A stretch of DNA of 64,000 nt from NCBI GenBank assembly GCA_963849325.1, contig CAWKHF010000006.1, positions 384,001-448,000 on the forward strand. Direction: 5' to 3'. Both the position numbers and the translations under genes were made by a program. This stretch comes from an uncultured Planctomycetota bacterium. GTDB taxonomy: Bacteria; Planctomycetota; Planctomycetia; Gemmatales; Gemmataceae. Shown here piece by piece: positions 30,393 to 64,000 of this stretch. The notes under the pieces were generated by a model. It had not been told where the DNA came from and did no database searches. It worked only from the letters and a program-made list of their open reading frames with translations. Position 1 is the stretch's first letter, and each line of letters begins with the position of its first letter.

Positions 30393-33300
30393 TCACCGTG
30401 TTTCGACCGTCACGGCCATGACGATGGGGGCGGTACGGTCGCTTCCCTTGAGCAACTCAATCTCCTTGATCGTCTCCGCGCGCTCGGGGGTGATGGCGAA
30501 ATAGCGAACCTGTCGTCCGCGCAGGTCGAAGGCGAACTGCGAACCGGGCACGTCCACGCGGCGGATGTAGTCGGCGAAGTGTTCGCCGTTCTTCAAGGCG
30601 TGGTCCTCCGTCTGGCCGTCGGCGTAGTGCAGGCGCACGATCATCGATACGGAGCCTTTCGCGCCACCGGGGTAGCCCCAGCCACTGACGCCGCCGAGGA
30701 AGTGGATCGCCCGCGCCGCCGTGTTGCACGGCAGTGTCACCGACTTCGGCATCTTCGGCGGAAACGTGCCATTGCTACTGTTCAGCAGGATGACGTTCTT
30801 GACGCGGCCCTTCTGCGGATCGACCATCTGAAACGGCACGCCGTTGAACGTCTTGGGCTTCCAATCGGGGAAGCTCAGGCGTTCGGCGCCGGCGTCCTTG
30901 CTGTAGAACATGCCCTGCGTGCTGACGATGGTGGCGGCCTTGTCCAGCGGGATCAGCACGAATTTGCCCTTGGCCGTCAGGAACTCCAGCACGTTGACGA
31001 TGTCGTCCTTGCTCAGCTGCTTCTCGAAACCTTCCGGCATGATGGTGCGGTTGGAGGCGATCATTTCCTCGATGTCCTCGCGGAGGATGACGCTCCGTTT
31101 CGCCTCAGCGTCCACCACTTCGATCGCCGTCTTCGTTTCGGAGGCCAAAAGTCCGTTATAGACTCGCCCCGCCTTCGTGGTCACGGTGTACTGGCGATAA
31201 TTGCCCTCGACGGAGCGATTGGGATCGAGCATCTTTTGCAGAATTTTGCTCTTGGGGTGGACGTTGAAGCCGGTCAGGTTCGGGGCGATGGTCTCGCCGG
31301 TGTCGCCGTGACGGTGGCACTTGGCGCAGATGTTCTTGAAGACCTCGAAGCCCTTGTGTGGATCGCCGGTCTTCTCGACGAGCGGCAGGTATTCGTCGAG
31401 GACTTTCTGCCGATCGGGGCTGGGCAGCCGGCCGCCGCGAGCGAGGATAGCGCGAGCACGGTCGGCGATCTTCTTATCGGGGTGGTTGGTCAACTGCTGC
31501 GATTGATCGAGGCTCAGGTCGGTCGCCGAAACGGTCCCCTTGTCGAGAGCATCGAGCAGAACATTGGACCATTCGGGGCGGCGCAGCAGGATGGCAGCGG
31601 CCTGCTGGCGCAGGCGCGGCGTCAGTTGGTTCCAATAGGCAACGAGGACGGCGGCCAGCTCGGGAGTCGTCGCCTGCCCGGCGGCGTCGAGAATGCCGGA
31701 CGAGAGGGTCGGACTCGCCTTGGGCGATGCCTCGGCGAGCAGACTTTCGAGCACGGTACGGTCGGGCTGCATCTGGGCGAGGCGCTGGGCGGCCTCGATG
31801 CGTTCCTTGTCGGACTTTTTCTCGTCGGCGACGAGGGCAAGGAGCGATTTGCGCAGCCCAGCCATCGCCTTCTCGAAGCGCGGGGCCAGCCCCCAGCGGC
31901 CGGCCAGCGCGGCCAGATTTAACTGGCCATTGGGGCCAAGTCGCCCCATCAGAGCGACGAGATCGTCGCGCGCGTGCGCTCGTCGAGTTTCGGCGTGTTG
32001 CCCTTGGGCCAGCCAGCGGCCAGTCCTTCGAGCAACACGTCGGCATCGGCGGAATCGGCGTCCTTCAACTGGGCCAGCAACTCGGCAACGGAGCCGGAAG
32101 CGTCGCCGCGGGCGTAGTGTTCGGCGACGATGCGAACCATGTGGCGAACGGTGTCGCTGTTCTTTTTCGCCGCGAGGGTCGCGGCGAGGAAGCCGATGTC
32201 GTGGCGGGCCGCGGCGCTGGTGGCGGCCAGCGGAATCCAGCGATCCTTTTCGTTCTCGGGAACCAGCAGCAACGCATGAATGGCCGTCCCGGCGTCTCGG
32301 GAGGAGGGCATTTCGCTGAGGGCCAGAAGCGCGGCACGACGGACGAGCGGTTCGCGGTCCTGGAGCAGATCGGCCCGGAGGATCGCCCCGACGGACTCCG
32401 CCGAGCGCGGCAGGAAGCCGCACGCTGCACGCCGAACCCCGGCCGAGGCGTGTTTCAGGTCTTTGTGGAGTAAGGCCGTCGTTTCCGCCGTGGGTTTGAC
32501 GAAGGCGCCCAGGCCGCTCAAGGCTCCAAGGGCATGGATGGCCGGCAGGTTCTCGCCGGTCGCATCGGTTTCGGGGTTGCCGGCCAATTCCGCCAGCGCC
32601 GGCAACACATCCGATTTCCCGCGATCGACCAGCAGGCGTTGGGCCGTCACGCGCCAGAACATATTGTCCTGCTTGAGAGCGGCGACGAGCTGCGCCGGTG
32701 TGGTGCTATCAAGGTTGAGGAGGGCGGGCGTCTTCGCGCTCTCATTGATGATGCGGTAAATGCGGCCGTGTTTCTTGTCGCGCAGCGGCGTGACGTAGGC
32801 GGCGCCCTTGCCGGTCTCGAAACCGGGCGGCGTCGGGTTGTGCTGGACGATGTAGTTGTACCAGTCGAGCACCCAGACCGCGCCGTCCGGCCCAACCTCG
32901 GCGGCGATGGGGGCCGTCCATTCGTCGCTGCTGGACAGCAGATTGAAACGGTCGTGCGTGACGAAATTGCTGCCCTGCTTGTCGAGCAGGCACATGGCGA
33001 CGAGGTGGCCGGTCGGCTCGGCCACGAGGGCGATGCGATTCCAGTAGGGCGAGGGAAACTGGCGAGCGGTGTAGACGGCGTGACCGGCGGCGGCGGTGAA
33101 GCCGTCATGGAAGTCTACTTGACGGATCGCCGTAATCGGATGATAGCGCCAGTAGTCGGCCATGCGCACCGTGCCCTTGCCGAGCCAGCCGCGCACCGAC
33201 TCGAAGTAGCGGTTCGGGATCGCCAAGTAGGAGGAGTGTTCGCCGTTGGCCGTCGAGTAGAAGATTTCGCCCGTCTCGCCCAGTCCCAGTCCCCAGGTGT

Positions 33301-56434: not shown

Positions 56435-56659
56435 ATGACACCCGTATCGTCCGTGGTCCATAGTGACCCCGACATCCTGGGCGGCGTGCCGGTGTTCGTT
56501 GGCACCCGCGTGCCCGTCCGGGCGCTGATCGACTACCTCGGCGGCGGCCAGCCGCTCTCCGAGTTTCTAGAGGACTTCCCGTCTGTCAGCCGCGAACAGG
56601 CGGTGGCTGCCCTGCGGCTGGCTGCTGAGGCACTGATGGCCCATGCGAATTCTGCTTGA
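56435..56659 (+). CDS. DUF433 antitoxin
   Basis: DPDILGGVPVFVGTRVPV..L.DYL..G.....FLEDFPSV. Confidence 0.92.
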   Translation: MTPVSSVVHSDPDILGGVPVFVGTRVPVRALIDYLGGGQPLSEFLEDFPSVSREQAVAALRLAAEALMAHANSA

Positions 56660-56965
56660 CGAGTGTGTGCCCCAGCGGCTGGGCCGGGAGCTGACCGGCC
56701 ACGCCGTCCAGACGGTCCCGCAGCAGGGCTGGTCGGGCAAGAAGAACGGAGAGTTGCTCGGCCTCATGGCGGCGGCCGGGTTCGAGGTGCTGCTGACGGT
56801 GGACCAGGGCATCCCGCACCAGCAGAACCTGCCGCGGCCGGGGTGGCGGTGGTGGTGATGGCCGGCCCGAGCAACCAACTCGTGGATCTGGTGCCGCTAG
56901 TGCCTGGCGTAGTGGCCGCGCTGGGAACGATTCAGCCAGGCGATGTGGTCGAGATCCGCACCTAA
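56643..56965 (+). CDS. DUF5615 PIN-like toxin (frameshifted)
   Basis: MRILLDECVP, GWSGKKNGELL, LLTVD..IPHQQNL; overlaps the DUF433 gene. Confidence 0.9.
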
Positions 56966-56992
56966 CAAGTTGTTGCAGTAGACCCGCCATGC

Positions 56993-57056
56993 AGCTTTGC
57001 CACGCATTAGCGGTTTTTTAGCTCAATGCGTGGCAACTTTCCTCAATGCGTTGCAG
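56993..57056. repeat. Left end of element 1: TIR plus two 14-bp subterminal motifs
   Basis: TCAATGCGTGGCAA at 57023-36 and TCAATGCGTTGCAG at 57043-56 (20-bp period). Confidence 0.88.
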
Positions 57057-57100
57057 GAAACGCGCCAGAACTGTAGTTCCAAAAAGCGAACATTTTTTGC

Positions 57101-57129
57101 TTGACAGGTGTCAACATTCCGGCTATCGT
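57101..57129 (+). promoter_or_regulatory. Sigma70 promoter with palindromic operator; probably a leaderless transcript
   Basis: TTGACA-17 bp-TATCGT; TTGACA-GG-TGTCAA palindrome on the -35; ATG 6 nt after the -10. Confidence 0.75.
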
Positions 57130-57135
57130 TCCTGA

Positions 57136-57418
57136 ATGGGAAGGCCACGGCATCCGAATAAGCACATCGAGAAGGCCGTCCAATACGCGGAGGCTCTCGG
57201 ATGGCGCGTCGAGCTATCAAATGGTCATGCTTGGGGCCATTTGCTCTGCCCACAGAGTACCCGTGAAGGGTGCATTGTCGGGGTCTGGTCTACTCCCAAA
57301 AACGCTGAAAACCACGCTCGCCACATCCGGCGTGAAGTTGATATTTGTCCTCATGGAACACCTAGCAAAGGCAACGTTGAAGAACTACAGTGTGCAAGAA
57401 AAAAGGGGAGGGAAATGA
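57136..57418 (+). CDS. HicA-like putative toxin
   Basis: HPNKHIEKAVQYAEALGWRV...GHAWG.L.CP...VWSTP; probably ends at the ATGA overlap (57415-18), the fusion being an indel. Confidence 0.6.
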
Positions 57419-57981
57419 AAACCGGGAAGCCGTGTGAGCGGGAGCACGACTTTGTCCTGGTCCTGACTGGCATTAACGAGTTGACGCCATCAGTGGAGGA
57501 AGCTCTGTTTGAGGCCGGCTGCGATGACGCTACGCCTAGCGTCCGATTCGGTCGAGTATACCTAACCTTCTCGCGTTGTGCCGCATCTCTGAAAGATGCA
57601 ATCCTGAGCGCAATTCAGGACGTGAGGGCGGCCAAGATCGGGGCAGATGTACTCCGAGTCGATCACTGCAACCTTGTCACGCAGGCCGACATTGCCCGTA
57701 AAATCAACCGAAGTCGGCAGCTTGTTCATCAATACTACACTGGAGTCCGTGGCCCTGGCAACTTCCCGCCCCCGGTTTGTCACATATGCGATGAGTCGCC
57801 ACTTTGGTATTGGTGCGAGGTTGCCTATTGGCTTTGGGAGAACGACATGATTACAGAGGATGTGTGTCGGGAGGCTGAACATGTCGCCTTCATCAATACT
57901 GTACTAGAGCTTAAAAACCAACGAGAGATTGATCCGAAGTTAGCAGAAGAGGTACTCCAATCAATCGGTGCAGCTCAGTAA
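57415..57981 (+). CDS. Putative antitoxin (HicB-like N-terminus plus HTH)
   Basis: GGGGAGGG RBS; LFEAGCDDA, LVTQADIARKINRSRQLVHQY, FPPP, PLW.W.EVA.WL. Confidence 0.7.
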   Translation: MKTGKPCEREHDFVLVLTGINELTPSVEEALFEAGCDDATPSVRFGRVYLTFSRCAASLKDAILSAIQDVRAAKIGADVLRVDHCNLVTQADIARKINRSRQLVHQYYTGVRGPGNFPPPVCHICDESPLWYWCEVAYWLWENDMITEDVCREAEHVAFINTVLELKNQREIDPKLAEEVLQSIGAAQ

Positions 57982-57999
57982 GTTTTTGCTTCCAGTATG

Positions 58000-58034
58000 C
58001 GGCAAGTCCCAGTCTAATAAGCCGGGACTTGCCG
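58000..58034. terminator. Hairpin between the convergent antitoxin and transposase genes
   Basis: CGGCAAGTCCC...GGGACTTGCCG, an 11-bp stem. Confidence 0.65.
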
Positions 58035-58035
58035 T

Positions 58036-59321
58036 TTAACTAGGTCGCTGCATTCTTAGGATCATCCCCGCGCCGTCCTGTCGCTCCTCCGGCTCCTCAT
58101 CCTTCCAGAATACCGGCACGATGCCAAGCGTTTCTTGCTCCTGAATCAAGCAGGACAGGTTGTGGCAGAGGATTTTGCACAGCACTTCGTTGACCATCGA
58201 CATTTCGTTCTTGCTCGCCACCCTGTCGCCGAACTTCCGCTTGATGGCGCGAGAAGGTGATCTCGACGTTGCTGCGCTTGTGATAATGGGTCATGTACTC
58301 TTCCTGGTTGCACTGAAAGTAGTGGTAGGCTTTCTCGAAAGCGCCGCCAATCGCGCCCGTGCTGTTGGACTTGAAGGCAATGAACGCCTGCCCGCCGCAA
58401 GCTGCAACCTCTTCAAAGTTCTCCACGGAAAGGTAAGCCTTGTCGGCGCTCACTTCGCCGATCTCAAAATGCGTCTTCGTCTCGCGGACCAGCGGGACGA
58501 ACTGAGGGCAATCATGGGCATCCTTGTCCAGAATGCGGACGGCAGTAACGACATTCGTTTTCACGCCGGAGGCGATATGCGTCTTGACCCAGATGCCGCG
58601 CGTCCGCGTGACGCCGTACTTGTGGTCGTACCAGCGCTCGTAGACGGCAAGTGCTGAACCCGCTGCTGTCGATGGCGAAGTCTTTTTCGACCGGATCGCA
58701 ACGGACGGGCCTTTCGCCGACGAGCTGCTTGAGAACCGGCGTGTAGTACGGGTCTTCCATGAACGTTGTCGCCTTCATGCCGGGAATCAGCTTGCGGGTG
58801 AATCCTTTCTCGTAGGCTTCCTGCAAGGTCTGTGGAGAAGCGGCGGGCGCTGTAAACCGCAGTAAACCTTGTAGGCCATCGTGAAGACGGCATCACTAGA
58901 ACGCGTGCGGCTTCGTGCCCGTCGTGCTTGCCGGCCGCTGCGCGATCTGGCACGACGGCGAGCAGAGGTCGTGCAAGAGGACGCGGAGGCGGCGCTTCTC
59001 CGTGGCTTGCGCCATGTTGTACTTCGGCCAGTCCTGCTTGTAGGTCTTCCGCTCGGTGAGCGTAATCGTCTTCGTCTCAATCACGGTGCCATCCGGCAGC
59101 ACATCCCTCTTGTGGACGATGGACGCGGCGTAGAAGTGCTTGCAGGTGTTGCCGCCGTCAACGTGATCCAGGCAAGTGCAGGTCTTCGCTTCCAGGTTGA
59201 CGCGGTACGTCGCGTTACCGCTCTTGTTGGACTGGCTCGGCACAAGCCAGGTGCCGTCGTTCATGCGGTTCAGCCGACAGGTCGCCGCGATGATGAGTCC
59301 ACGCTGCTCTCTGGCGTCCAT
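58036..59321 (-). CDS. Transposase: N-terminal SWIM Zn finger plus IS4/IS5-type (DDE_Tnp_1-like) DDE domain (several frameshifts)
   Basis: WLVPSQS..YRVNL...CTCLDH.....CKH; FAIDSSGF; SADKAY; YHKRSNVE; NEVLCKILCHN. Confidence 0.88.
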
Positions 59322-59357
59322 TTTCTCAATCTCCGGGACAACGCTCTTGTCCACATT

Positions 59358-59400
59358 ATTGTATACACCGGAGACAGATTTGTAAACATATTGGTAGACA
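59358..59400 (-). promoter_or_regulatory. Transposase promoter with repeated TGTnnAC(A) boxes
   Basis: TTTACA-17 bp-TACAAT; boxes TGTCTACC, TGTTTACA and TGTATACA, with TGTGGACA just downstream. Confidence 0.7.
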
Positions 59401-59443
59401 GTTTTCCTAGTTTTTCTCGGCTTTTTTCGTAATCGCTTGCCAG

Positions 59444-59677
59444 TTACAGAAGGTCTTTCAGGTTCCGGTTGATGGCCCAAGCAAAGTCGAGAAGAGTGGA
59501 AAGACGGGGATCGTAGTCCGATTCAGGATTGAGCAGGCGAGACACTGCCTGCCGTGCCCCTCCCTTAGCAAGCCCCATGCGGAGGCCGATCTCTTCCTGC
59601 GTCATGCCGCTTTCTTCGGCTGCCTGACGCATTCTCTGTCGGACAGAGGCGACCGCGAGATGGTTCACCTTCCCCAT
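59444..59677 (-). CDS. Xre/cI-like HTH regulator, probably leaderless
   Basis: GMTQEEIGLRMG...RQAVSRLLN....DPRLSTL; upstream TTGCCC-17 bp-TAGACT, then ATG 6 nt later. Confidence 0.88.
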   Translation of the reverse strand: MGKVNHLAVASVRQRMRQAAEESGMTQEEIGLRMGLAKGGARQAVSRLLNPESDYDPRLSTLLDFAWAINRNLKDLL

Positions 59678-59808
59678 GTTGTAAGTCTACACCTTCGTAG
59701 TCATTCGGGCAACATGAACGTTGGCAACAGTAACTGCCACGAAAAGACACCCTGCTGTGGAGAATGGTCCTCGTAACTCCTTTTGCGTCACCGTCTTGCG
59801 ATGTTCTA

Positions 59809-59837
59809 TTGACATAAGCCCTTATCGAGCTTACAAT
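59809..59837 (+). promoter_or_regulatory. Strong sigma70 promoter for the cargo operon
   Basis: TTGACA-17 bp-TACAAT. Confidence 0.8.
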
Positions 59838-59888
59838 TAGGACGAGTGTAGGAGCACTAGATGCCCCCGTCCTCAGCTGAGGTCCGGT

Positions 59889-62445
59889 GTGAAATTCACA
59901 AGCGCAGTGCAGGAGCAATCATTCCGCGCGGTGCTGCGCGCGTTGGAGCGGTTGGGTTACACTCGCGACGTTTTGTTGAAAGAGGAGTATCCCTTCGACG
60001 ACTGGTTCTTGCCCGGCAACCAAGAGCGAGTCGCCCCAGCCGTGGCCTTCGGCCAGACCCCTCTCGCTTACGACAGCGCTTGCTTCGCGGTGGTGGTGTC
60101 CAACGGCCAGCAAGGCCCCGAACTGGTCAACCAGTATCGTGCCTTGGGTGCCCCCCTCGCTATCGAAGTTCGCCCTGACAAGGTAGTACACTGGCGAGTC
60201 AGCCGAGCCATGTCGGCTGGAGATGAGCAGTTCGTCATCCCCCCGGATCGGGTAGAGGATGCCTTCCAGGAGAATGCGCACAAGTGGAACCCGGAAAGTG
60301 TTTTTCGGGCAAAGAACATCGCCGCAACATCTCCCCGCCAAGCCGACTTCGTGGACCTCGGCTTAATCCCTGCACTGGAGCAACACGTTCGCGCCAAACT
60401 CGATCCCTTGCTGCGGGAGGTATTGCACGCGGGGAAGAAGGAGTATGAATACCGCAAGGGAGGACCGCCGGACCCAGACAAACTGTACCGCCTTGTATTC
60501 CGGACCCTCGCGGGGAAGATGATGTCTGAGCGGGGGGTGTTAGGCTTCCACTCGGCCAACGGTGCGCCGAACGCCCCGGATCTCTAGACAAGGTTGCCAA
60601 ATTCTACAGTGATTCCCAGCCGGTCGTTGCCGATGTGTCAACCCAACGGGTTGTCGTGGAAAGGCTGTGGCAGAGCATCAGCCTGAGAAATCTGTCCGTC
60701 GAAGTGCTGGCGTTCGTCTGGGAGAACACCCTTGTAACCAGGGATATTCGCGAGGAACGAGGCATTCACGCCACCCCGCCCAGCATCGCCCGATACCTCG
60801 TTCACCGCCTGCCTATCCAAGACATTCCACAGGCTGAGCGGCGCATTGTCGAACCTTGCTGTGGGAGCGGCACGTTCTTGGTTGCGGCCCTCCAGCGACT
60901 GCGTGAACTGCTACCGCCTTCGATTGACCCGCGGAGTCGGCACAAGTATTTCACCGACATGCTCAGCGGGTTCGACAATGAAACCTTCGGCTTGGAGGTG
61001 GCGCGTCCAGCCTAATGCTTGCCGACTTCCCGAACCCGAACGGGTGGGCGCTCGTCGAGGAAGACGTTTTTGGGACGCCCGAGCAGTCGCCGCAGTTCCA
61101 CGCCGCTTTGCAAGCAGCCCGCGTGGTTCTGTGCAACCCGCCATTCGAGCCGTTCAAGCCACGGGACCGCGCTTTGTACGAGTTACGCTCCGTCCATAAG
61201 CCGGTGGAACTATTGCAGCGAGTCCTCGACCAACTCGGAAATCAGGGGCTTCTTGGCTTCGTACTTCCCCAGCAACTACTCAATGGGGTGAGTTACCGCA
61301 GCATTCGAGAGAGACTGGCCGAGCGGTATGAAGAAATCGAGTTGGTCGGCTTGCCGGATAAGGTCTTCGAGAAGTCTGAACACGAAACAGCTCTCCTGCT
61401 GGCGAAGGTCCCGCGAACCCATCGGGGGCCGCTGTCCATTCTCCACCGCAAGGTCGAGGACAGGGGTTGGCCTCTCTTTAACGCTTACTCCCAGGTCAGC
61501 CGAGAAGACGCCGGAGCCAAGACCCCAGCGCAAGCATCCGACAACATCGGGATACCCGACCTCCAAAGCATCTGGACGCGCACTGGCCGGATCACCCACG
61601 GTCGGCGATGTTACGGGCGGGAACGTCCACCGCGGCATCGAATGGAATCTTCCACTGGACGAGAACAAGTGAGCTGTTGATCTCCAAGGCTGCACAGCCC
61701 GAATATGGCGCGGCGTGCCGCGTGCGCGAAGAGGCTTTTACTCCTACCAGTGCCCATCTCTCTCATACCTCTGCATGAAGGAGGAGTACCGAAGAAGGAA
61801 CGCTTTCAACTTGCCTTGGAATCTACCCAAGGTAATCATGAACGCGAAGCGGAAGTGCGCGGTCCCTGGCGGATTGCGGCATACGCCGACGAGGCCGGAC
61901 TGGTTTGCTACCAGACGTACACCGCCCTGTGGCCGTCTGGGGATTGGACTGCGACGGCTCTGGCCGCAGTCCTCAACGGGCCGGTTGCGAATGCGTTCGT
62001 TGCGTCCCACGAAGGCAATCGTGACATCACCGTCGAGACAGTCAAGGCAATTCCGGTTCCGCCGCTGACGAATGCCCTGAAAGGGGGGCTTACGAAGTTG
62101 GTAGCCGAGTATCGGACAGCCGCCGAGCGAATGGAGCTTGAAGTCAGGTCGGGCGAGCGCTCAGCGCGCGACATCCTTCGCGAGATTGACGCGGCCATCC
62201 TGAGAGCCTACGACCTCTCGCCTAGGCTCGAACATGAACTGCTCAACTATTTCAGCGGGTATGGCACGAAGAGGCCAGTGCCCTTCAACTTCGGCGACTA
62301 CTACCCGGCCGACTTTAGCTCGCATATCCCCTTATGGATGTTTCTCTCGCCAGAGTTCCAGAGAGGCAACCCGCAGGACATCTTGTCGAAAGCTCCTAAG
62401 ATCACCGATCCGGCATTGATCGACGCATTCCGTGAAGTGGAGTAA
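59889..62445 (+). CDS. Type IIG-like N6-adenine DNA methyltransferase with TRD (frameshifted)
   Basis: RGIHATP, VEPCCGSGTFL (motif I), LCNPPF (motif IV), GFVLP, TRD-like AVLNGPVA and EIDAAILRAYDL. Confidence 0.85.
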
Positions 62446-62451
62446 CCTGCT

Positions 62452-63010
62452 TTGCCAAACGGAAAACTGCTCGACAATAACGTGATTTCGGTTCTTGCGA
62501 GTGCCAAGGACCCAAGGAGGCCGATAGCGGAGGCACACCTAGCCGCGTCTGGTTTCGGGCCGATTGTCTTTCCGTGCATCGCTATCGGCGAAATCGAATT
62601 TGGGATGATGAAGGCGACAAACCCAGACGCGGCACAACAGGCGAGCATGAGGGCATTCCTTAAGCGCTATCCGATTCTCCCTTTCGACCATCACACCGTC
62701 GAACCGTATGCGATGATTCGCGCAAAAACTCTGGCTCATGTTCGGCACTGCGAAGGTGCGCGGTCACGCCGAAAAACTCCCAGAAGAGTTGAAAGACCGC
62801 GCAACAGGACTCTGCCTAGGTATCGATGAACGAGACTTACTCATCGCCAGCATCGCGGTAGCGTTTAACCTATTCCTGGCGACGATGGATCGCAATGACG
62901 GGATGCGGCGGATTGAGGCAGCTGCGGCGGTCCTTGAAGCAGAAGGCAAGCCTGTTTGCCTCCGGATTGAGGATTGGTCGAAACCGTTGCCCGGCGCGTC
63001 TGACTATTGA
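62452..63010 (+). CDS. PIN-domain (VapC-like) nuclease (frameshifted)
   Basis: LLDNNVIS, IGEIEFG, IDERDLLIASIA, LATMD; starts 6 bp after the methylase stop. Confidence 0.82.
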
Positions 63011-63011
63011 G

Positions 63012-63140
63012 TCAAAACGTTGCAGACCGCCTCAAAACGTTGCAGCTCGCCAATGCGTTGCAAAGCTCCGCCATGCAGCTTTGCCACGCATTGACACTTT
63101 TTCACGTCAATGCGTGGCAACTTGCCTCAATCCGTTGCAG
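63012..63140. repeat. Junction: right end of element 1, 9-bp target duplication, left end of element 2
   Basis: TCAAAACGTTGCAG twice (63012, 63032); CAATGCGTTGCAAAGCT | CCGCCATGC | AGCTTTGCCACGCATTG; TCAATGCGTGGCAA at 63107; TCAATCCGTTGCAG at 63127. Confidence 0.92.
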
Positions 63141-64000
63141 GCGGCGAAAACCGTAGGACCATCCGCGCGCTGTCCTGTCGCTCCTCTAGCTCCTCATCTT
63201 TCCAGAAACCGGGCACGATGCCAAGCGTTTCCTGCTCCATGAATCAGGCAGGACAGGTTGTGGCAGAGGATCTTGCAAAGCACTTCGTTGACCATCGACA
63301 CGTTCGTTCTTGCTCGCCACGTCTGCCCCGAACTTCCGCTTGATCGCGGAGAAAGTGCGTTTCGACGTTCCACCGCTTGTGGTAGTGCGCCATGTACTCT
63401 TCCTGGTTGAACTGGAAGAAGTGAAACGCCTTCTCGAAAGTGCCGCCAACCGCGCCCGTGCGCGTTGGACTTGAAGGCGATGAACGCCTGCCCGCCGCAC
63501 TCGGCGACCGCCTCAAAGTTCTCCACGGATGGCGTAAGCCTTGTCCGCGCATCACTTCGCCGATCTCGAAGTGCTTCCGCGTCTCGCTTGACCAGCGGGA
63601 CGAACTGCGGGCAATCGTGGGCGTCCTTGTCGAGAATGCGGACGGCCGTAACGACGTTCGTTTTGACGCCGGAGGCGATGTGCGTCTTGACCCAGACGCT
63701 GCGCGTCCGCGTGACGCCGTACTTGTGGTCGTACCAGCTTCTCGTAGCCGCGAGCTGCCGAAGCCGCTGCTGTCGATGGCGAAGGCCGTTTCGAGGGAGC
63801 GGAGCGGGCGGGCGCTGTCGCCGATCGAGTTGCTCTGAGGATCGGCGTGTAGTACGGGTCTTCCGCGAACGACGTCGCCTTCATGCCGGGAATCGGCTTG
63901 CTGACGAAACCCATCTCGTAGGCTTCGTGCAGGTCCGTGGTGAAGCGGCGGGCGCTGCAGGCCGCAGTAGACCTTGTAGGCCATCGTGAAAAGGGCATCG
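63077..64000. mobile_element. Second, diverged element of the same family (element 2), extending beyond the window
   Basis: Same left-end architecture as element 1 and a paralogous transposase. Confidence 0.9.
63127..64000 (-). CDS. Transposase paralog, C-terminal DDE part (frameshifted; 5' end outside the window)
   Basis: MAYKVYCG, FAIDSSGFG, YHKRWNVE, NEVLCKILCHN, FWKDEE...SPPATD; stop TGA at 63127-29. Confidence 0.88.

Follow-up and report, generated by a model that had tools for sequence, protein, structure and literature searches.

An uncultured member of the Planctomycetota carries two different transposable elements that stand one directly behind the other, with a single 9-bp sequence between them, and the locus raises the question of how two insertions came to share one target. 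The initial annotation of the window (the whole stretch of 64,000 nucleotides that was analysed) had proposed that the right end of the first element imitates the target, that the transposase reads the same motif in its own ends and in target DNA, and that every insertion thereby rebuilds a landing site on which further elements may stack.

Read from the window and from the whole of its own genome (G000, in which contig G000:C6 carries the window), the locus has the order flank, CCGCCATGC, E1, CCGCCATGC, E2, CCGCCATGC, flank. The first copy of the target-site duplication occupies positions 56984 to 56992. Element E1 follows on the plus strand at positions 56993 to 63067 (6075 bp); its termini, AGCTTTGC(C/A)ACGCATT, form an inverted repeat in which 18 of 20 bases pair, and the 9-bp duplication around it is perfect. 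The second copy, at positions 63068 to 63076 (inverted-repeat pair I13), is the sole spacer separating E1 from E2. The left part of E2, likewise on the plus strand, fills positions 63077 to 64000; the whole element measures 3715 bp and ends outside the window, at G000:C6:450791, with ...GCGTTGCAAAGAC, directly after which the third copy of CCGCCATGC is found (G000:C6:450792-450800).

The contents of the two elements differ. E1 comprises, in order, its left end, a 281-aa ORF (orf281), the transposase gene, a small helix-turn-helix ORF, pieces of an N6-methylase, a PIN-domain gene and its right end; all of these ORFs other than the transposase gene we count as cargo. The only Pfam matches on the E1 ORFs are DDE_Tnp_1, SWIM, a weak Sigma70_r4, N6_Mtase/MmeI_Mtase/UPF0020 and PIN, with no ATPase partner among them, and five of the ORFs match no Pfam family at all. 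E2 has a left end at positions 63077 to 63141, a transposase gene on the minus strand and a cargo unlike that of E1, namely a tRNA-Thr(GGT) gene (G000:C6:448563-448637, past the end of the window), an ORF without a family and a Bro-N protein. The two elements have in common only the transposase region (85% identity over 1284 nt) and the left end (86% of 65 nt), and their cargo genes are unrelated. E1 and E2 are thus different elements, which implies that two insertions took place at one 9-bp target: the junction consists of two different members of one transposon family, arranged head to tail in the same 9-bp target. Either order of arrival would yield the identical structure. A search for sequencing reads that support the junction found no public run containing more than 0.05 of the sampled words.

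The transposase gene of E1 (positions 58039 to 59321, minus strand) is read in three frames, implying at least two frameshifts in the assembly. All three family copies of the gene in this genome are interrupted in the same manner, being read in three to five frames with 2 to 5 frameshifts each, and host genes near E1 and E2 also look frame-shifted. Together with the state of the assembly (14 contigs, 84.7% completeness), this makes assembly indels a more probable source of the frameshifts than decay, and for the same reason spacings that differ by a single base deserve some caution. The right tip of E2 deviates from that of the other elements, with GAC in place of GCT, and E2 was therefore left out of the element counts given below.

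Transposases of this family are about 425 aa long, with a probable N-terminal SWIM zinc-finger region followed by a DDE_Tnp_1 catalytic domain. The DDE_Tnp_1 model (PF01609, cutoff 23) scores 33.6 bits on the E1 fragment and 59 to 71 bits on intact homologues. The SWIM model (PF04434, cutoff 19.6) scores 18.2 bits on the E1 copy and 18.6 on P0001, compared to 26.5 on homologue P0028 and 29.4 on homologue P0041; two of five intact homologues pass the cutoff, and the CxC...CxH pattern is visible in the translated E1 transposase. Among the NCBIfam models the best match is the IS5 model NF033579, which covers the C-terminal half only and gives the family transposases 97 to 108 bits, short of its equivalog cutoff of 140. 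The identity shared with plasmid-borne IS5 transposases amounts to only about 24%. When longer relatives were sought, 227 of 739 candidates scored at E <= 0.001; the matches listed, 120 in number, are 347 to 450 aa long, and a few of them go under names such as "transposase", "Transposase DDE domain/SWIM zinc finger", Zavarzinella formosa or Gemmataceae bacterium.

Judged from sequence features, the family is IS5/IS903-like, with a SWIM plus DDE_Tnp_1 transposase, RGCTTTGC termini and a 9-bp duplication. An annotated plasmid-borne copy of ISAba10 (locus L084) has AGCTTTGTTGCA... ends and the 9-bp duplication CCTTTCATT, and it is the terminal signature and duplication length shared with this copy that tie our elements to the IS903-type IS5 elements; the group name, IS903 group, is one that we take to apply to them. 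The catalytic domain, the duplication length and the termini match those of the IS5/IS903 type, but the family transposases have an additional N-terminal region of some 200 aa with the SWIM finger. The elements differ as well: they measure 2618 to 9283 bp, carry 1 to 7 kb of cargo genes and have three phased sites at each end, whereas IS5 elements are compact, with a single ORF in about 1 kb. IS903 itself is tabulated as having a palindromic target motif around its 9-bp duplication (PMC2577343). Of 252 genomes belonging to the same taxonomic family, 73 contain the transposase, as do 2 of 401 sampled across the phylum, G000 being included in both counts, and a limited collection of papers contained no description of the family or of such stacks.

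Further members and relatives were seen in the source genome. A third family copy, E3, has no GTTGCA on its left-end side; to the eye, the flank of its right end looks similar to an inner repeat. Two intact but more distant paralogues of the transposase (C5:717253-718449 and C6:234613-235821) have 45 to 48% identity to P0001, and the one on C5 lies within an element of 3289 bp that has the 9-bp duplication TAATAATGT. There are also three 98-bp miniature elements with family termini AGCTTTGCAACGTAAT ... ATTACGTTGCAAAGCC, at G000:C4:46224, C6:555210 (equivalent to window position 171210, outside the window) and C12:1479391. Their first 90 nt and last 40 nt are identical as far as printed, and one has a perfect 9-bp duplication, CTCTTTTGT; their sequences suggest recent mobilisation by a family transposase. 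A 97-bp element at G000:C7:194471-194567 has GGCTTTGCCACGCATT inverted repeats like the ends of E1, and its flanks do not form a clean 9-bp duplication.

The ends of E1 are built from repeated copies of one short site. In the left end (positions 56993 to 57057, plus strand) the terminal site is inverted, with its core at 56998-57004 on the minus strand, and two inner sites in the other orientation follow at 57028-35 and 57048-55, that is, at +35 and +55. The right end (positions 63012 to 63067, plus strand) holds three direct 8-mer sites, 63017-24, 63037-44 and 63055-62, which end 43, 23 and 5 nt from the tip. The CGT(T/G)GCA core lies at each of the seven places reported earlier (57029, 57049, 63018, 63038, 63056, 63113 and 63133), with spacings of 20, 20, 18 and 20 bp, and we add to these an inverted terminal copy at 56998 and another at 63082, both on the minus strand. 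Across the window the core is not enriched overall (24 matches compared to 26.7 expected), and 9 of the 24 matches fall within about 210 bp of element ends. The same layout recurs in the family. Left ends with one site at +5 and two oppositely oriented sites, mostly at +35 and +55, were found in 13 of 38 elements, and 12 of 38 have right ends in which at least three direct sites stand, for the most part 5, 23 and 43 nt from the tip. The threshold for a site was agreement with the terminal 8-mer at 7 of 8 positions, and in the remaining elements the inner repeats diverge too far from that 8-mer to be counted. Such a conserved layout is what functional binding sites would show.

We turn to the native sequence to the left of E1, where the proposed mimicry begins. 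The left flank reads T (56971), GTTGCA (56972-77), GTAGAC (56978-83) and then CCGCCATGC (56984-92), and the right end of E1 reads C, GTTGCA (63057-62), AAGCT (63063-67) and then CCGCCATGC (63068-76). Direct reading thus bears out that the same hexamer stands before the 9-mer in both places and comes one base nearer to it after insertion, 5 bp instead of 6; the right end of E2 likewise has GTTGCA 5 bp before its 9-mer. As an imitation of an end site the native hexamer (positions 56972 to 56977, plus strand) is weak. By our own count it agrees with 6 of the 8 positions of the element's own 8-mer, GCGTTGCA, and with 10 of the 14 in the 14-bp repeat, and the C found without exception in the nine real sites is missing from it. 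Chance was estimated for this locus alone from 300,000 random genome sites with the 25 nt before each. The chance that any 6-mer from the final 25 nt of the right end reappears ahead of a random site, within one base of register, is P = 0.014, and for GTTGCA itself at 5 to 7 nt it is P = 0.0006. The native GTTGCA is where it was said to be, but as a target motif it is a weak match (6 of 8) with a single-locus P of about 0.014. With E3 having none on its left-end side, the native mimic may be a matter of chance, while the E1-E2 junction is a true case of a family habit.

The history of this flank bears on whether native DNA by itself could have drawn both elements. The congener G007 has conserved this flank next to the same toxin-antitoxin gene, with 84% identity over 580 nt reaching to window position 56983; after the gene 14 of 18 positions match, and CTTGTA takes the place of GTTGCA. 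A different insertion sequence, IS630-like by our own reading of its ends, sits in G007 a few bases from the equivalent position, which indicates that this intergenic spot tolerates insertions. These observations would suit a site-specific hot spot set by the native 9-mer and its flanks, at which the element ends play no role, as would the CCAT that the duplication shared by E1 and E2 has in common with that of E3, at positions 4 to 7. We consider such a hot spot unlikely, on grounds that come from the other members of the family and are given below.

Just left of the insertion, at window positions 56435 to 56965, lies a DUF433 plus DUF5615/PIN_10 toxin-antitoxin pair. The second gene of the pair is spread over two frames (56643-56858 and 56663-56965), as happens with several other genes here, and the frame breaks are probably assembly indel errors. 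In another genus the same toxin-antitoxin gene recurs (L016, G022:C715, about 2060 to 2400), followed by an imperfect palindrome and then by a homologue of the N-terminal part of the 281-aa ORF of E1 (57136-57981), with no recognisable element end between. This small domain, HPNKHI...HAWG...NHAR, was seen by eye to recur near such modules. We considered whether the left flank is the relic right end of an older element ("E0") that had carried the toxin-antitoxin genes, and we rejected this, since the flank is conserved in G007 without GTTGCA and no second site is present 23 nt further in.

To place the locus among its relatives, we assembled two sets of elements whose ends are defined by an inverted repeat and a 9-bp duplication. 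Set 1 was drawn from 60 fetched regions, 10 loci from a search of contigs with a single protein and five stretches of G000; 82 transposase matches yielded 38 elements with ends that passed the filters, of which 37 had enough flank. A palindrome without a transposase (L007, at 16262) and an element with too short a flank (L081) were dropped. Set 2 consisted of 40 regions, from which 15 elements passed. Among the resulting 52 elements, which have GGCTTTGC-type ends, the duplications match at 8 or 9 of 9 positions.

Tandem stacking recurs in these sets, in line with the initial annotation. Head-to-tail tandems with only the shared 9-bp duplication between the partners were found for 6 of the 52 elements with defined ends, in five genomes (G000, G633, G652, G584 and G607). 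Four are among the 37 elements of set 1, namely E1, the two that form a pair on G633:C14 and the middle element of a run of three at L082. The other two are among the 15 elements of set 2 (L096 and L112), each adjoining the left end of a neighbor. The G633:C14 pair repeats the arrangement of E1 and E2, with one 9-mer present three times, before Ea (9283 bp), between Ea and Eb (8105 bp) and after Eb, and with transposase regions that are 92% identical but cargo that is different. Elements were also found inside a resident end, L066 in a right end and L083 in left-end-like sequence, and L012 is nested. All six tandems are head to tail; a counter-example to that arrangement is L051, where two elements stand tail to tail about 60 bp apart.

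These tandems speak against a hot spot in the native DNA. Their 9-mers in the other genomes (GGCCTGGCG, ACAAGGAAG, ACAGATCGG and GGGCTGGGG) are unrelated, and the end of a neighbor is the only feature that the tandem sites have in common. The 37 targets of set 1 have no consensus either: a sequence logo of the sites across homologs, which had been suggested as a check on the upstream hexamer, gave no position-specific signal, the maximum being 0.4 bit per position.

The tandems also bear on the possibility that the copies arose together, by duplication or recombination, either as dimers of the kind formed by IS30, IS21 and IS911 or through unequal exchange. Dimers with short spacers are known transposition intermediates of insertion sequences, with IS30 treated in PMC9333248. 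Here, however, the partners differ in all of their cargo and their transposase DNA is only 85 to 92% identical, and the spacer is a full 9-bp duplication, further copies of which border the tandem on its two outer sides. None of the six tandem elements has an identical partner and a spacer unrelated to the outer duplications. We regard an origin of this kind as very improbable.

To ask whether the end motif is read in target DNA, we searched the flanks of both sets for the hexamer at the core of that motif. In set 1 (37 elements), GTT(G/T)CA was found on the left-end side of 6 and TG(C/A)AAC on the right-end side of 5, and the opposite orientation gave 0 and 0. Against a null mean of about 0.5, the observed numbers were reached in 0 and 1 of 3000 draws. 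For set 2 (15 elements) the test was fixed beforehand, and it gave 5 and 4 instances in the proper orientation and 1 and 1 in the improper one, against a null mean of 0.18, with the observed value reached in 0 of 3000 draws. Pooled over both sets, 20 instances are in the proper, head-to-tail orientation and 2 are not. Since the two orientations are reverse complements of each other, base composition cannot explain this difference. Set 2 is not fully independent of set 1, because genomes G474, G002 and G607 are common to both; the properly oriented flanks stem from about 10 genomes, and 37 of the 52 elements have no such hexamer within 40 bp.

When each element's own 8-mer was sought within 40 bp of the duplication (at least 7 of 8 positions), the 33 elements of set 1 outside tandems gave 7 proper instances and 1 improper. 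The mean was 1.04 for random sites in the same loci and 1.55 for permuted flanks, and neither null reached 7 in 2000 draws. This result was not replicated in set 2, where the 15 elements gave 1 proper and 2 improper flank instances.

The distance from the motif to the duplication ranges from 5 to 27 bp and is never below 5 nt, the distance at which the site stands within the ends. The proposal of an enrichment upstream of the duplications thus holds in part: GTT(G/T)CA is enriched in both sets and in one orientation, but at no fixed offset of 5 to 6 bp. The idea that the right end in particular is rebuilt as a landing site is not borne out, as both ends attract insertions and not the right one alone. 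The broader claim, that the transposase reads the same motif in its ends and in the target, gains partial support from the orientation-specific enrichment and loses some to the weak match of the native GTTGCA.

Several flanks consist of repeats. Dense intergenic arrays of CGTTGCA/TGCAACG or CGTTTCA/TGAAACG were found at L102 and L104 (G474) and at L030, L091 and L114 (G002), and relatives lie within intergenic clusters of short palindromic repeats at L063, L091, L102, L104 and L114. The dense arrays in G474 and G002 have been struck repeatedly by different elements of the family. In G000, by comparison, only 13 repeat clusters with at least 3 hexamers were found that might serve as landing pads, and 3 of them are element ends. 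The left flanks of L096 (G584) and L122 (G566) have nearly the same target, ..TTAACTAGACG(T/C)TTCTAG followed by AC(A/G)G(A/G)TCG(G/A), and this common target may be a conserved mobile or repeated sequence.

A large number of flanks belong to intergenic repeat clusters or to other elements, and this raises an explanation of another sort, in which insertions are random and those next to or within mobile DNA or intergenic repeats are harmless and so persist, so that end-like motifs would accumulate in flanks with no targeting involved. Nested and neighboring insertion sequences are indeed common in these genomes (L012, L051 and L077). Survival of this kind should nevertheless be blind to orientation, in conflict with 20 proper and 2 improper instances, and it leaves the exact re-use of the same 9 bp by 6 of the 52 elements unexplained. 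We think it improbable that survival accounts for the pattern.

The reading that we consider best is end-directed target choice, as described for IS30, to which we assign a probability of roughly 0.55 on the comparisons above. The part of the protein that binds the end sites would also bind the same motif in target DNA, and the transposition complex would thus be drawn to resident ends of the family and to look-alike genomic repeats, in a head-to-tail orientation. With the terminal site of a resident end 5 nt from its tip, the next insertion would often take the 9 bp that abut it. These 9 bp are the resident's own duplication, so that the same 9-mer appears three times, as it does around E1 and E2. 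We infer from the sequences that the transposase does the reading, and which of its domains does so: distances that scatter in this way are easier to reconcile with a flexible tether than with a rigid mode of recognition by the catalytic core, and the SWIM region would be that tether.

A more far-reaching form of end-directed choice, which we offer tentatively and at clearly less than even odds, is that the end-binding domain of this SWIM-DDE family acts as a homing device, for which resident ends and the repeats that mimic them serve as landing pads, so that one 9-bp site accretes a head-to-tail train of different cargo modules. The modules of such trains would include methylases, toxin-antitoxin parts, tRNAs and Bro-N proteins. 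If the transposase does read its end motif in the target, this would be a simple and testable form of self-directed target choice in an IS5-type enzyme, with the N-terminal SWIM region as the candidate sequence-specific tether. Its visible consequence in the genome would be that unrelated cargo modules gather side by side at one site, and it would explain why elements of the family so often lie in intergenic repeat clusters.

The homing reading, if true, would amount to a transposase-driven analogue of the accretion of integron cassettes. The initial annotation had mentioned attC DNA, and this is not supported by the stretch covered: sixteen ORFs of at least 110 aa between positions 30393 and 56302 gave no integrase, only matches to metabolic and regulatory families or none.

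Other known systems resemble this family in one respect or another. The ends of Tn7 and Mu have several transposase sites, arranged differently at the two ends, and both transposons avoid inserting near their own ends, a behavior known as target immunity. The comparison with Mu and Tn7 made in the initial annotation is apt as to the asymmetric, multisite ends, the layout of which recurs in the family, but it does not extend to membership. The duplication is 9 bp rather than 5 bp, and no ATPase target selector (TnsC, MuB) is among the Pfam matches of E1; the likeness is for these reasons only architectural. As regards target choice, elements that insert beside their own ends do the opposite of what target immunity does.

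Insertion sequences that target REP palindromes are described (PMC1525189), and the presence of several of our relatives in clusters of short palindromic repeats is reminiscent of them. The present family differs from these in that the arms of the repeats resemble the element's own end core and that their orientation relative to the element is fixed. A link between transposon ends and target motif has also been proposed for the P element, the terminal bases of which would rebuild the target motif after insertion, a link that extends to recurrent insertion at hot spots (Linheiro and Bergman 2008, PMC2577343). That system is eukaryotic, its motif is a 14-bp palindrome and three terminal nucleotides are involved; here the whole end-binding motif would be involved and tandem cargo arrays result.

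The closest analogue, on the features compared, is the insertion of IS30 next to its own inverted repeats. IS30 has a dual choice of targets, nearly palindromic hot spots or sites next to its own inverted repeats, and the latter show a pronounced orientation specificity, with left-right junctions only (PMC9333248). Our family shares with it both the proximity, in that 6 of 52 elements adjoin a family end and L066 and L083 lie inside one, and the orientation specificity, in the tandems that are all head to tail and in the hexamers. "Targeted" transposition of IS911 is likewise reported as insertion next to its own inverted repeats. IS30, in contrast, has a transposase of another family and a copy-out-paste-in pathway with circles and dimers, and its junctions, which are themselves reactive, have a 2 bp spacer and a duplication of 2 to 3 bp, compared to an IS5-like DDE enzyme and a full 9-bp duplication between diverged, cargo-carrying partners here.
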